Source of the DNA: a virus
IMG/VR virus record: IMGVR_UViG_3300028588_000020
Span: 6,035-70,034 of that record
Reading direction: 5' to 3' (one strand)
Length of the DNA stretch: 64,000 nt
Position numbers and translations under genes: made by a program. Below are positions 36,981 to 38,709 of the stretch, in pieces. Every line of letters starts with the position of its first letter. The first letter of the stretch is position 1. Below the pieces are notes generated by a model, which was not told the origin of the DNA, ran no database searches, and saw nothing but the letters and a program-made list of their open reading frames with translations.

Positions 36981-37737
36981 CGTTGAGTTTCAAGGCGTAA
37001 GCGCCGGGGATTCAGCGCAGGAAGCAGAATAGACCGCGAGCACTTACGGGGAGTTCGCTAGTCGTAGTCAATCCAGCATAGCGTTCCCCTAGCTGCATGG
37101 GGCTGGACCCGAAGAACGCGAGATCGTGGAAGTCATGGCCGTAACCATCGGCCGAAGCGATCTAGGTTGAGGCTCGGTTACCGTCGTTTTCGAGCCCTAA
37201 CTGATAAGCCACCACCGGAAAGGCACCACGCACTATAGTCGTGGGCGTGGACGGAGCAGGCTTATCAGTTGGGAAACCAACGAAGGAAAGCGGATACAAG
37301 GCGGCGACGCGACGGTCGGGCAGAAGCGGAAAGAACCTGCTACGACGGCTAGGCACCGTGGAAACGTGCTTTTGGGTGCGCACCGGAGACGCACGTTAGG
37401 CCGGCATGGGGATCCTCGCAAGAGGGCCTTCATGAGGTGGGGTTTCATGCAAAGCAGCGAAGGGCAAGCGCGTGTAGGACGGATAGTTGCGCCGGTCATG
37501 AAACCTCGCCCCATGAGGGCATCGGTCGGAATGGTAGCCACCAACAGGCATCTTTGCGCAGGTAAAGCAAGGGCGCGGTGGCGCTGCCGGTCGAAGCCCG
37601 CCAAGCTGCGATAGACCACGATCGAGGGCCGAGAGCCGGGTGAAGGTAGCCCGGGGGCGCCGCTTGATGCGCGGATGAGCAGGGCGAATGGCAAGCTACG
37701 GGCCTGACTTACGCCGGGGGGAAAGAACTCGGCACCA
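36981..37737 (+). ncRNA. Large ornate structured RNA A (~755 nt; GOLLD/ROOL-like size and context)
   Basis: 5' and 3' ends pair (36994-37001 with 37708-37715; 36985-36990 with 37725-37730); 24-bp and 15-bp helices; many GNRA loops; ends in ACCA. Confidence 0.7.
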
Positions 37738-37741
37738 GTTT

Positions 37742-37817
37742 CGCGGGGTAGAGCAGTTGGCAGCTCGTCGGGCTCATAATCCGGAGGTCGCAGGTTCGAG
37801 TCCTGCCCCCGCAACCA
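37742..37817 (+). tRNA. tRNA-fMet (CAT)
   Basis: CGCGGGG acceptor with C1:A72 mismatch, CTCATAA loop, TTCGAGT T-loop and encoded CCA. Confidence 0.97.
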
Positions 37818-37819
37818 GT

Positions 37820-38522
37820 AGCACCGTGGAGCCTCTCACGAGGCGCCACATGGCTGGACACTTGGGATGACGGTTCGACGCCTGCCCCGGCACCACTCCA
37901 TTGCGCGTGGATCGCAATCGAGCCGCCCAAGTGCCCAGCCATGTGGTGATGATCCGCAACGATCAGTAAGTGCCGGCCTGACTGTACGCCCTCTGGCCGG
38001 CGCTGATGCTAGGGGCAGGAATCCGGTGGAGCCGTACAGCGAGCCCGGTGGAACTGCTCAAGACCTCGGCGGGGAGCTGGGGCAAGCCGGTGAAAGCCCG
38101 GCGTGGTGCTGTATGACTGGATCCGGCCGGCTAGAACCCGGCCCGTTAAAGCCGCTGCGCAGCCTGGCAGCCGTCAACACGTAGCCGGTGAAGGTAGCCC
38201 AGCACCATGCAAGGCCGCAGTACCGCCGGGGCGGGTAGCCCTGTCCCGGCGCCACAAGAATGCAGGCTGCCCGACTGGATCCGTGCTGTGACGCTTTGAT
38301 TGCGCTGGCGGCGTGGGAGGAAGGCGGTAGAGGCGAGATTCGGCAGGGGCCAACAGCCTGCATCCTTGTGGTTCGATCGGCAGCGGCCGGCCAGTGCTTT
38401 GACGAGTGCCTGCCGGCCGCAGCCGTATCGAGCCGCTACATGACTGGCGGTTGCCGACAATAAGTTGGCTGTCCGATACCCTATGGCGCCGGCGAGGGCA
38501 ACGTCGAGCAGCCGCCAGCCAT
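37820..38522 (+). ncRNA. Large ornate structured RNA B (~700 nt)
   Basis: 21-bp, 18-bp, 10-bp and 11-bp helices with G-U and A-C pairs, a candidate pseudoknot and no credible ORF. Confidence 0.65.
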
Positions 38523-38602
38523 GTGGCGCGCGTAGTTCAGCGGCAGAACCTGGCCTGCACAAGCCATGGTCGCGGGTTCGAGTCCCGCCGTGCGACACTC
38601 CA
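38523..38602 (+). tRNA. Atypical tRNA-like element (GCA/GCAC anticodon, extended acceptor stem, U-CCA end)
   Basis: D arm GTTC/GAAC, T arm GCGGG-TTCGAGT-CCCGC, anticodon arm TGGC-CTGCACAA-GCCA. Confidence 0.75.
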
Positions 38603-38709
38603 TCAATGCCCGGCCGCTGCACTATGCAAGCGAGGTGATTAGCCATATCTGCCTCGCCGTCTGACCAGCGGCCCGGGCGCCAAACACCAACACCACCCTG
38701 GAGATCCCC

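Follow-up and report, generated by a model that had tools for sequence, protein, structure and literature searches.

Within a non-coding stretch of about 1.7 kb (positions 36975-38680 of the window, by which we mean the whole 64,000-nt stretch of phage DNA that was analysed), we identified a structured RNA element at 38092-38219 that belongs to a new RNA family supported by covariation. The family comprises some 40 copies of an element of approximately 125 nt, found in uncultivated phages and in prophages, mostly of Burkholderiales, and was found neither in Rfam 15 nor in our search of the literature. Two of its strands are invariant, CAUGACUGG and AAGGUAGCC; each is a 9-mer that also occurs in the final 65 nt of host-type 16S rRNA, and the function that best fits these matches would be that of a mimic of the 16S rRNA 3' end.

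The island lies on the plus strand of an IMG/VR phage record, between nin-type genes and the gene for the small terminase, and its phage is of the temperate, lambdoid type, probably with a Burkholderiales host. A frame-specific GC3 signal, as shown by the flanking genes, is missing from about 36940 to 38620, and no ORF overlapping the island, long ORFs included, gave a Pfam match when coding remnants were sought. This bears out an earlier, sequence-only reading of the same DNA, which had seen no credible ORF here. The operator-controlled promoter that it had placed at 36945-36974 did not hold up, as a consensus scan of 35400-40800 returned no sigma-70-like site and the hexamers, judged by eye, match at 7/12 positions. 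The island was also devoid of intrinsic terminators in a dedicated scan and of a boxA-type antitermination signal, and ARAGORN reported no tmRNA. With Rfam 15, a cmscan of the window at gathering thresholds returned two tRNAs and nothing else, and a cmscan of 36500-39200 at E <= 10 added only chance-level matches of 17-18 bits; GOLLD, ROOL, OLE, RNase P, tmRNA and group I/II introns, the families named for comparison in the sequence-only reading, were thus all absent, with tRNAs the sole families matched. The tRNA-fMet gene was the only match of the island in a blastn search of GenBank phages, and a search for phage relatives via TerS yielded one distant locus, matching only at this tRNA. The protein encoded upstream (36327-36926) is an orphan without relatives, and exact-protein look-ups of the flanking proteins gave no matches. 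Downstream, GGAGAU precedes the ATG at 38710, 3' of the last hairpin of the island. The features of the region are as follows.

36927-36974, plus strand: somewhat AT-rich spacer following the end of the upstream gene at its stop codon (read from the sequence)
36975-37741, plus strand: "RNA A", an orphan structured non-coding segment (no coding periodicity, no Rfam match)
36982-37016, 37037-37099, 37121-37163, 37197-37272 and 37315-37346, plus strand: centroid hairpins of RNA A (fold)
37350-37706, plus strand: branched domain of RNA A, followed by a hairpin at 37713-37733
37634-37654, plus strand: local hairpin with GGGUGAAGGUAGCC, which copies part of the conserved element's 3' strand (not recognised by model R1)
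37742-37817, plus strand: initiator-type tRNA-Met(CAU) with encoded CCA (ARAGORN; Rfam tRNA, 61.1 bits against a threshold of 29)
37843-37946, plus strand: long hairpin with a 21-bp stem, enclosing a degenerate tRNA copy (inverted repeat and fold)
37968-38010, plus strand: hairpin displaying GGCCUGACUGUACGCC, a motif of the sequence-only reading that is also present at 37701 (fold)
38086-38102, plus strand: small hairpin GCCGG-UGAAAGC-CCGGC directly 5' of P1, the counterpart of hairpin H-1 at other loci
38092-38219, plus strand: conserved structured RNA element, 128 nt (R1, 88.5 bits, E 1.7e-25, full-length)
38103-38111 with 38200-38208, plus strand: P1, the helix that closes the element
38112-38123, plus strand: 5' strand, UAUGACUGGAUC
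38125-38143, plus strand: P2 hairpin with loop CUAGAAC
38170-38180, plus strand: GCCGUCAACAC
38187-38199, plus strand: 3' strand, GGUGAAGGUAGCC
38249-38372, plus strand: long hairpin with an 18-bp stem, containing CUGGAUC and GGCGGCGUGGGAGGAAGG (inverted repeat, fold)
38373-38432, plus strand: hairpin with AGCCGUAUCG, a 10-mer of 16S helix 45, in its 3' arm at 38421-38430 (fold)
38434-38524, plus strand: hairpin domain opening with CAUGACUGG at 38439-38447 (5.7 bits with R1)
38525-38598, plus strand: tRNA-like gene with an 8-nt anticodon loop, CUGCACAA (ARAGORN "tRNA-???"; Rfam tRNA, 38.0 bits, threshold 29)
38608-38678, plus strand: nested hairpin without a U-tract
38710-38964, plus strand: first downstream ORF, 84 aa, of no known family
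40720-41355: small terminase, 3' of the 84-aa ORF

As hallmarks of the family we took a P1 of at least 9 bp that closes the element, a 5' strand (C/U)AUGACUGGA, the P2 hairpin and a 3' strand GA(A/U)(G/A)GUAGCC that immediately adjoins the 3' half of P1 on its 5' side, and the copy in the window shows all of them. The next-best match of model R1 in the window reaches 9.9 bits with filters off; the element is present once in the record. Three other stretches of the island (37580-37660, 38250-38373 and 38434-38528) were considered as further copies and rejected, since R1 gave them 5.7-5.8 bits or did not report them; such module-like pieces have only single core motifs in common with the element. 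Elsewhere, R1 produced 39 matches of 49-126 bits, and two more copies scored 68.8 and 49.3 bits. Scans with a 14-mer and with patterns located the element in IMG/VR contigs and in five GTDB MAGs (Oxalobacteraceae, two Noviherbaspirillum, Acidovorax and Dongiaceae), and one of 151 sampled Burkholderiales genomes carries it; GenBank phages queried with a family member gave no match. The structure is supported by covariation, with 92% of cells paired compared to 73% in shuffled alignments and 130 cells changed on both sides compared to 44, values that were reached in none of 500 shuffles. Compensatory changes were found at all 11 pairs of P1 and at 3 pairs of P2, the paired share dropped to 27-49% in slid-control alignments, and the strand of the element follows from its G-U pairs.

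In the other phages and prophages, the element is operon-internal: it comes behind the stop codon of one gene, and the ribosome-binding site of small accessory genes follows a short way 3' of it, 35-90 nt away in many loci. A hairpin lies 3' of the upstream stop codon at these loci, and in most cases a hairpin and a tRNA-like domain, D0, come ahead of the element; in D0, a T-arm is combined with a long closing helix. This closing helix, P0, is near perfect over 14-20 bp and has 6-8 nt in common with the 5' strand of P1, with which it would compete. The downstream genes differ between phages and are unrelated to translation, among them the recombination genes for RecT, RecE and Erf, and no partner protein gene is conserved beside the element. 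Long non-coding islands around the element recur (about 790 nt at locus L136), and loci L097 and L137 have a terminator-like hairpin on the upstream, not the downstream, side of the element. True tRNAs adjoin the element only in the window, and the tRNA association is therefore not a general one. At gathering thresholds, 16 other element loci gave no match to c4 or c4-a1b1, nor to any Rfam family other than tRNA.

The likeness to 16S rRNA extends beyond the two invariant strands, as CUGGAUC and GGUGAAG likewise occur within the last 65 nt of host-type 16S rRNA. For this comparison, the Burkholderiales 16S 3' end was taken from three genomes; in one of them (G070), CATGACTGG, AAGGTAGCC and CTGGATC are found at 16S positions 1470, 1493 and 1518. 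Two 9-mers and a 7-mer of the element fall within one 80-nt stretch of 16S rRNA; identity of the conserved strands to the 16S 3' end beyond chance is what we took as the sequence mark of a 16S 3' minor-domain mimic. Nine 7-mers are shared between the core and 16S rRNA within one 80-nt window, a number matched by 0 of 2000 shuffled cores, although these statistics are post hoc, the comparison having followed the noticing of the resemblance. BLAST matches of 33 family members cluster at 16S positions 1425-1525, and the most divergent copies of the element keep both 9-mers. The whole island shares 28 7-mers with the 16S tail, compared to 8.2 +/- 3.5 for other chunks of the window and 10 for its own minus strand. 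In other phages, the flanks of the element are marginally enriched in 16S-like 7-mers (1.97 versus 1.45, p = 0.02), so that the case for mimicry is carried by the core strands, which, being invariant, offer no covariation test of their pairing. The element contains neither the anti-Shine-Dalgarno sequence nor the helix 45 loop and hence does not fully reproduce any binding site that is known. The enterobacterial-type variant AAGGTAACC was used to look for co-variation of the element with host 16S rRNA; it gave no match in one IMG/VR scan at a spacing of 50-80 nt, a result that is not evidence against mimicry. The searched literature held nothing relevant on the motif strings or on rRNA-mimic or decoy RNAs in phages.

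The sequence-only reading had described the island as a cassette of two giant RNAs, A and B, punctuated by tRNAs. The region is indeed gene free, structured on the plus strand and provided with two tRNAs, but in place of two giant RNAs it holds one conserved element of 128 nt. What was called RNA B consists of individual long-stem hairpins in a row, of which that at 38092-38219 is the sole conserved one with relatives. The motifs noted as common to A and B are present, including the exact 14-mer GGTGAAGGTAGCCC at 37639 and 38187, and are fragments of the core of the conserved element. The longest substring that A and B have in common is this length, 14, compared to a maximum of 13 in 300 shuffles. 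Beyond two short motifs of 19 nt (E 0.005) and 16 nt (E 0.23) they share nothing, which argues against their being paralogous. Likewise, the ACCA at which RNA A was thought to end proved trivial, situated as it is 4 nt ahead of the tRNA. Compared to shuffled sequences, the fold of RNA A has a z of -3.1 on the plus strand and -1.3 on the minus strand (20 shuffles), and that of RNA B a z of -6.2 on the plus strand. The check by homologues and covariation that had been proposed for the cassette gave strong covariation for the element within B and no homologue of RNA A, neither in 36 element-carrying records nor in 401 Burkholderiales genomes nor among the IMG/VR matches that carry the 5' motif in the variant present in the window; a single metagenome scan for the RNA A hairpin returned nine matches, all attributable to chance. 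General sharing of 9-mers with the whole rrn operon, apparent matches of RNA A to the rrn leader among them, was considered and rejected as near chance, at 71 compared to 47 +/- 9, with other chunks of the window reaching 70.

Both tRNAs and the nested hairpin that had been noted earlier were confirmed. The gene at 37742-37817 has the cloverleaf score, the CAT anticodon and the C1 opposite A72 of an initiator-type tRNA, and this C1xA72 mismatch is typical of initiator tRNAs. Two of the three G-C pairs of its anticodon stem are kept and the third is replaced by G31:U39, as read from the alignment; the gene is 92% identical to tRNA-fMet genes of Oxalobacteraceae MAGs. A degenerate copy of a tRNA T-arm and 3' end is found as a direct repeat at 37865-37886. 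The second, atypical tRNA (38525-38598) has a four-base anticodon according to ARAGORN and an acceptor mismatch. Its leader is formed by the 3' strand of the domain at 38434-38524, and this leader together with the first 5 nt of the tRNA is complementary to 37843-37857 at 15/15 positions, as an inverted repeat. By eye, the hairpin at 38249-38372 resembles the D0 domains ahead of the element at loci L126, L142 and L136. The nested hairpin at 38608-38678 has no U-run behind it and is thus not an intrinsic terminator.

Taken together, we tentatively favor a composite island in which RNA A and the remaining hairpins of RNA B would be lineage-specific additions, that is, long-stem domains with scattered copies of core motifs, and in which the conserved element would mimic the 3' end of 16S rRNA. 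According to this proposal, the island would be transcribed together with the flanking genes, RNase P and RNase Z would cut at the tRNAs and tRNA-like domains, and RNase III may cut the long perfect stems, thereby splitting messages and freeing stable, stem-closed RNAs. Upon formation of P1, the element would display its 16S-like strands and so mimic the upper part of helix 44, the linker and the base of helix 45 in the 16S 3' minor domain. It could then bind or divert a factor whose normal target is this region of the small subunit RNA; candidates are a factor for initiation or assembly, or an rRNA-directed nuclease. A bolder version, which we consider unlikely, would cast the element as a small, phage-encoded replica of the 16S 3' minor domain (decoding-site strand, linker and helix 45 base), freed from the operon transcript as a decoy or sponge for a translation initiation or 30S assembly factor, or for an rRNA-cleaving toxin or defence nuclease; with the initiator tRNA and the odd second tRNA, it would form an RNA-only island that protects or reprograms translation.

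Some of the same observations could be explained without a decoy. In a cis-acting role, putative sites for RNases P, III and E together with protective 5' and 3' structures would determine how stable the flanking messages are and how they are translated, and the 16S likeness would reflect host rRNA-processing signals. The invariable position of the element between genes of one operon, in many loci 35-90 nt 5' of a ribosome-binding site, the hairpin behind the upstream stop codon and the near-perfect 14-20 bp of P0, which resemble RNase III substrates, all fit such a role, as would a refolding triggered by cleavage in the case of the competing P0 and P1. Stabilizing hairpins, however, need no 25 invariant junction nucleotides across members that otherwise differ widely, and we regard this explanation as somewhat doubtful. 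It is also conceivable, but rather unlikely in our view, that only the tRNA-fMet and the conserved element are functional and that RNA A and the non-conserved hairpins of B are decaying or neutral remnants of a tRNA array or of duplications. RNA A has no homologues, the island includes the degenerate 3' half of a tRNA, both the aberrant second tRNA and the partial copies of core motifs resemble duplication debris, and high-GC sequence folds well anyway, the z of -3.1 for A coming from only 20 shuffles. Yet folding is strand specific and pronounced in B (z = -6.2), 1.5 kb of junk is rarely kept in phage genomes, and long non-coding islands recur around the element, as at L136.

Two further proposals fare less well. 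The sequence-only reading envisaged a lytic precursor that is cut at tRNAs into giant RNAs A (about 755 nt) and B (about 700 nt), paralogues or partners of the GOLLD and ROOL kind, possibly forming RNA-only assemblies. The tRNA-punctuated, plus-strand-structured and non-coding character of the region and the short motifs common to A and B are in line with this, and the perfectly complementary segments 37843-57 and 38515-29 could close all of B. Against it, even a threshold as loose as E <= 10 brought no match of A or B to GOLLD, ROOL or another large RNA family, tRNAs being the only exception among all Rfam families; motifs of only 16-19 nt link A to B; A has no relatives in any collection searched and hence no support from conservation; and no more of B than a 128-nt piece recurs elsewhere, where the remainder of B is missing. 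We therefore judge this model improbable. Even less probable is a processive antiterminator, a nascent RNA that would bind RNA polymerase and carry it past terminators into recombination or late genes. The HK022 put RNA acts alone on polymerase (PMC9378689), and an element that lacks a conserved adjoining partner protein gene and lies upstream of RecT, RecE and Erf genes elsewhere and of packaging genes here could be of this type. However, there is one copy per genome rather than one per early operon, coding genes precede the element on the same strand so that it is not promoter proximal, the terminator-like hairpins of L097 and L137 lie upstream and not downstream, and boxA is lacking from the island.

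If our proposal is true, the element represents a previously uncatalogued, phage-restricted family of structured RNA whose conserved core copies the 3' end of the host 16S rRNA. Ribosomal-protein leaders are a known case of RNA that mimics rRNA; to our knowledge, such mimicry has not been described as a mobile, phage-borne element ahead of accessory genes. At approximately 125 nt, the family would be a small and testable object for the handling of host translation factors, or of rRNA-directed defence nucleases, by phages. It also bears on how non-coding islands of phages assemble from stem-closed modules and tRNA-like domains, and it illustrates that the impression of a giant RNA can arise from a chain of independent units.

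Among known systems, GOLLD (RF01998) and ROOL (RF03087) resemble the island in their phage or prophage setting, nearby tRNA genes, ornate non-coding structure of several hundred nt and unknown function. The island differs in that it has no match to their covariance models at the gathering score or at E <= 10, in that the conserved unit is of about 125 nt instead of 600-800 nt, and in its Burkholderiales-type proteobacterial hosts. OLE, HEARO, raiA, RNase P, tmRNA and group I/II introns gave no match at gathering thresholds or at E <= 10. The leaders of ribosomal-protein operons are autoregulatory rRNA mimics embedded in mRNA and, like the element, carry a copy of part of an rRNA that in principle can be bound by an rRNA-binding factor. 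The element, in contrast, is phage borne and followed by varying genes, none of them for a ribosomal protein or translation, and the 16S region that it copies, from upper helix 44 through the linker to the base of helix 45, is largely free of ribosomal proteins.

The P4 CI RNA and the c4 RNA of P1/P7 are small, stem-closed antisense immunity RNAs that are processed from an operon transcript and whose central sequence is complementary to a pair of direct repeats that flank it on either side. This layout of repeats is similar to the a / a' / a'' arrangement at element loci. However, the strand shared here is the base of two competing helices and not a loop, neither an ant-like nor an immunity context was found, and c4 itself gave no match, c4-a1b1 reaching only 16.9 bits on the minus, and thus wrong, strand. 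Y RNAs, including YrlA, with their tRNA-like domain and long stem, resemble the D0 domains and the second tRNA with its flanking stems in joining a T-arm to a long closing helix. The Deinococcus_Y_RNA model scored 18.3 bits against a threshold of 80, owing to the T-arm of the second tRNA, no rsr gene is present in the annotated neighborhood of the window, and the conserved element itself is not tRNA-like.

Like the element, HK022 put is a structured RNA that is independent of protein and located upstream of recombination genes, in its case in lambdoid early operons (PMC9378689). Put is found near promoters, in two copies and in a few enterobacterial phages (PMC9378689), whereas the element occurs in one copy per record, far from promoters and thus not in the position expected of put, and has a different fold and 16S-like strands. 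Finally, phages encode tRNAs that replace host tRNAs targeted by defence nucleases or that evade such nucleases (PMC11555353), and here too we find a phage tRNA-fMet whose anticodon stem is altered and a tRNA whose anticodon loop is abnormal. The conserved element, in contrast, is no tRNA.

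The island, the non-coding region of the window at ~36975-38680, belongs to a 72-kb IMG/VR record of ~65% G+C and an estimated 77% completeness and is set among the following features:

Upstream (+): genes for a Holliday-junction resolvase, NinB, two cysteine-rich proteins (no family), an HU-like protein and an orphan membrane protein
37742-37817 (+): tRNA-Met(CAU) with an initiator-type C1xA72 mismatch (ARAGORN and Rfam agree)
38525-38598 (+): tRNA-like gene with an eight-nucleotide anticodon loop (ARAGORN and Rfam agree)
38608-38678 (+): nested hairpin without a U-run, then a ribosome-binding site and ATG at 38710
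Downstream (+): small ORFs without a family, then the small terminase subunit at 40720

This flanking gene content therefore marks the island as the boundary between nin-type and late genes in a lambdoid-style genome. The sequence-only reading had seen 1.7 kb here without a credible ORF, and this is borne out: frame-specific G+C is strong in the flanking genes and is lost from ~36940 to ~38620, and a Pfam search of the long ORFs crossing the island gave no match. The tRNA-fMet, the atypical tRNA, the closing nested hairpin and the quoted motifs are likewise where it had placed them; its operator-controlled promoter received no support from a consensus promoter scan. The two cysteine-rich proteins (198 and 136 aa; 34448-35451), unmatched in Pfam and at best weakly matched in PHROG, occupy the place of Q in lambdoid phages and may be late regulators. 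The small terminase region is flanked by two predicted DNA methyltransferases with DPPY motifs (41359-42582 and 43566-44993), the second with an N-terminal part that, judged by eye, is ParB-like. Initiation checks initiator identity in part through the third G-C pair of the anticodon stem; in the phage initiator tRNA this position is G31:U39, while a host copy (genome G070) has the G-C pair.

RNA A (36975-37741) and RNA B, the ~700-nt segment after the tRNA-fMet, have in common an exact 14-mer that is longer than the words shared in any of 300 shuffles. Scanning IMG/VR with the repeated 14-mer returned chance hits for the most part, together with ~10 loci that match window 38096-38215 over 105-150 nt. 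After another scan, this time with the 5' motif, and a single scan of GTDB genomes, the set had grown to 34 distinct sequences, and all members have the same layout:

P1: closing helix of 9-17 bp
5' strand: (C/U)AUGACUGGAUC
P2: hairpin, loop usually CUAGUAC
Region between P2 and the 3' strand: variable
3' strand: GA(A/U)(G/A)GUAGCC, immediately 5' of the P1 3' strand

A covariance model of this element, R1, found 39 copies in the fetched loci (49-126 bits) and two additional copies (68.8 and 49.3 bits), and in the window and entire record it found exactly one, at 88.5 bits, with the runner-up at 9.9 bits. The family is absent from Rfam and from GenBank phages, and its motif strings led to no relevant paper in the searched literature. 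Its occurrence is sporadic: among 151 sampled Burkholderiales genomes, one has it. A Noviherbaspirillum MAG carries two copies (G035:C198:24117-24265; 111 and 49 bits), the weaker of which keeps CAUGACUGGA and GAAGGUAGCC and has lost both the UC and the motif of the P2 loop.

In the alignment, 92% of cells were paired versus 73% in shuffles, with 130 versus 44 double changes; none of 500 shuffles matched either observed value, and in slid controls the paired fraction dropped to 27-49%. Compensatory changes were found in all 11 P1 pairs and in three P2 pairs, and frequent G-U pairs fix the strand. These values were computed on an alignment fitted with R1, which biases them toward the structure; P1 complementarity is plain in the raw sequences too. 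Taken together, the element defines a small RNA family that is well supported and apparently undescribed.

Its two most conserved strands are CAUGACUGG and AAGGUAGCC, kept even in the 49-bit copy, and both lie, with GGUGAAG and CUGGAUC, inside 65 nt of the Burkholderiales 16S 3' end, as taken from three genomes. The core strands and a single 80-nt stretch of the rrn operon have nine 7-mers in common, a value equaled by none of 2,000 shuffled cores in a comparison that was post hoc, begun once the resemblance had been noticed; the antisense strand gave no 8-mer matches. BLAST hits from 33 members concentrate at 16S 1425-1525. The copied version is the GGUAGCC/CUGGAUC type of the three Burkholderiales 16S genes; the E. 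coli counterparts are GGUAACC and UUGGAUC. The window copy also has GCCGUCAACAC at 38170-38180, similar to the 16S strand CCGUCACACC, and its sequence might allow pairing with GGUGAAGGU like that of the decoding-site helix. The element's two most conserved strands, both 9-mers, oppose each other beside P1 and could form U.G, G.A, A-U, C-G, U.G, G.A and G.A, a predicted pairing that presumably resembles the irregular part of helix 44. The island holds 28 16S-tail 7-mers versus 8.2 +/- 3.5 in other window chunks and 10 on its minus strand, because the island has further, partial copies of the core motifs at 37634-37654, 38275, 38421-38430 and 38439-38447; element flanks in other phages are only marginally enriched. 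A likeness of RNA A to the rrn leader was rejected, generic word-sharing being at chance level. In the rrn leader of G070 (L161, ~nt 760-850), a tRNA-fMet gene and then boxA (GCTCTTTAACA) lie just 5' of 16S; tRNA-fMet is an unusual neighbor there, and its juxtaposition with 16S sequence is reminiscent of the phage island.

The element always lies on the strand of the flanking genes, 3' of the upstream gene's stop codon and 5' of small unrelated ORFs, often with recombination genes (RecT, RecE, Erf) or an HNH endonuclease downstream. At ~27 loci it is preceded by a small hairpin, H-1, and a domain, D0 (75-185 nt), closed by a helix, P0, of 14-20 bp; the P0 3' strand and the P1 5' strand overlap by 6-8 nt, so that upstream and downstream segments compete for one middle strand. 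D0 is often tRNA-like, in some cases with a GGUUCGAAUCC T-arm. One such domain (L130:7479-7561) is called tRNA-Arg(CCG) by ARAGORN, and those of L130, L134 and L144 have a tRNA-Arg call or canonical T-arm, yet an acceptor helix of ~16 bp; they are tRNA-like structures embedded in operons. Long non-coding islands recur, as in L136 (~790 nt: tRNA-like unit, D0, element, further domain). The window copy (38092-38219, +) has no D0, and an H-1-like hairpin (38086-38102) adjoins P1 directly. A D0-like long hairpin (38249-38372) lies 3' of the element, and 37843-37857 forms a perfect complement to the second tRNA's leader; the window therefore has the same stem-closed, competing-strand syntax in another order. 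Upstream of the elements in L142 and L136 are more tandem units (hairpin, strand a, domain, strand a', core, strand a''), one with a different GGUAGCC-containing core and one with a tRNA-like core, and cores may be interchangeable across a larger set that includes the element. In L097 and L137, a U-run after the hairpin that precedes the element gives a terminator-like appearance, and an HNH endonuclease gene lies within ~170-220 nt downstream; there, therefore, the element stands at the entry to packaging genes, as in the window. In L124, a Burkholiales-2 RNA (RF02917; 10446-10520, +; 87 bits), ~440 nt upstream of the provirus element and divergent from it, is probably the leader of an oppositely oriented 125-aa gene.

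The sequence-only reading had proposed two giant paralogous or partner RNAs and had set them beside GOLLD and ROOL. With either gathering thresholds or E <= 10, searches of Rfam 15 reported the two tRNAs only, and membership in GOLLD, ROOL, OLE, RNase P, tmRNA, introns and Y RNA is therefore excluded. Paralogy of A and B was rejected as well, since sensitive blastn aligns just 19 nt and 16 nt. Two giant RNAs are thus very improbable; the underlying observation is real, and its main interpretation is wrong. That the island consists for the most part of neutral sequence surrounding two functional genes appears decidedly unlikely. RNA A had no relatives in GenBank phages, among 36 element-carrying phage or genome records or among 401 sampled Burkholderiales genomes, nor did its most distinctive hairpin, used to scan metagenomes, find any. 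On the + strand both halves fold more stably than shuffled sequence: z is -3.1 for RNA A, compared with -1.3 on the opposite strand, and -6.2 for RNA B. The value of the finding lies in one small RNA family that unexpectedly resembles the 16S rRNA tail, not in two giant RNAs.

We tentatively favor, as possible rather than probable, a composite account of a cotranscribed island, cutting at tRNA sites and a 16S-like element. Transcription would enter from the upstream genes or from a putative promoter and continue into the downstream genes, because no terminator intervenes; RNase P and RNase Z would excise the tRNAs and tRNA-like domains, and long stems may serve as RNase III sites. Cleavage or transcription order would set the choice between P0 and P1, and the P1-closed element would be a stable RNA displaying 16S-like strands, diverting or recruiting a factor that recognizes the 16S 3' minor domain. 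A decoy or sponge role for the element specifically is unlikely. A purely cis-acting processing or stability element is a somewhat doubtful alternative, and a put-like antiterminator is the most improbable, its copy number and promoter distance differing from those of HK022 put.

Among known systems, rRNA-mimicking leaders are closest in working to the proposed mode; unlike them, the element is phage-borne and has no tie to a translation gene. Its three-strand arrangement is similar to that of the P4 CI and P1 c4 RNAs, whereas no model match to these was obtained. In position it is similar to HK022 put, from which it differs in copy number and distance from promoters (PMC9378689). Phage tRNAs can replace or evade targeted host tRNAs, a theme that, by analogy, the island tRNAs would fit (PMC11555353).
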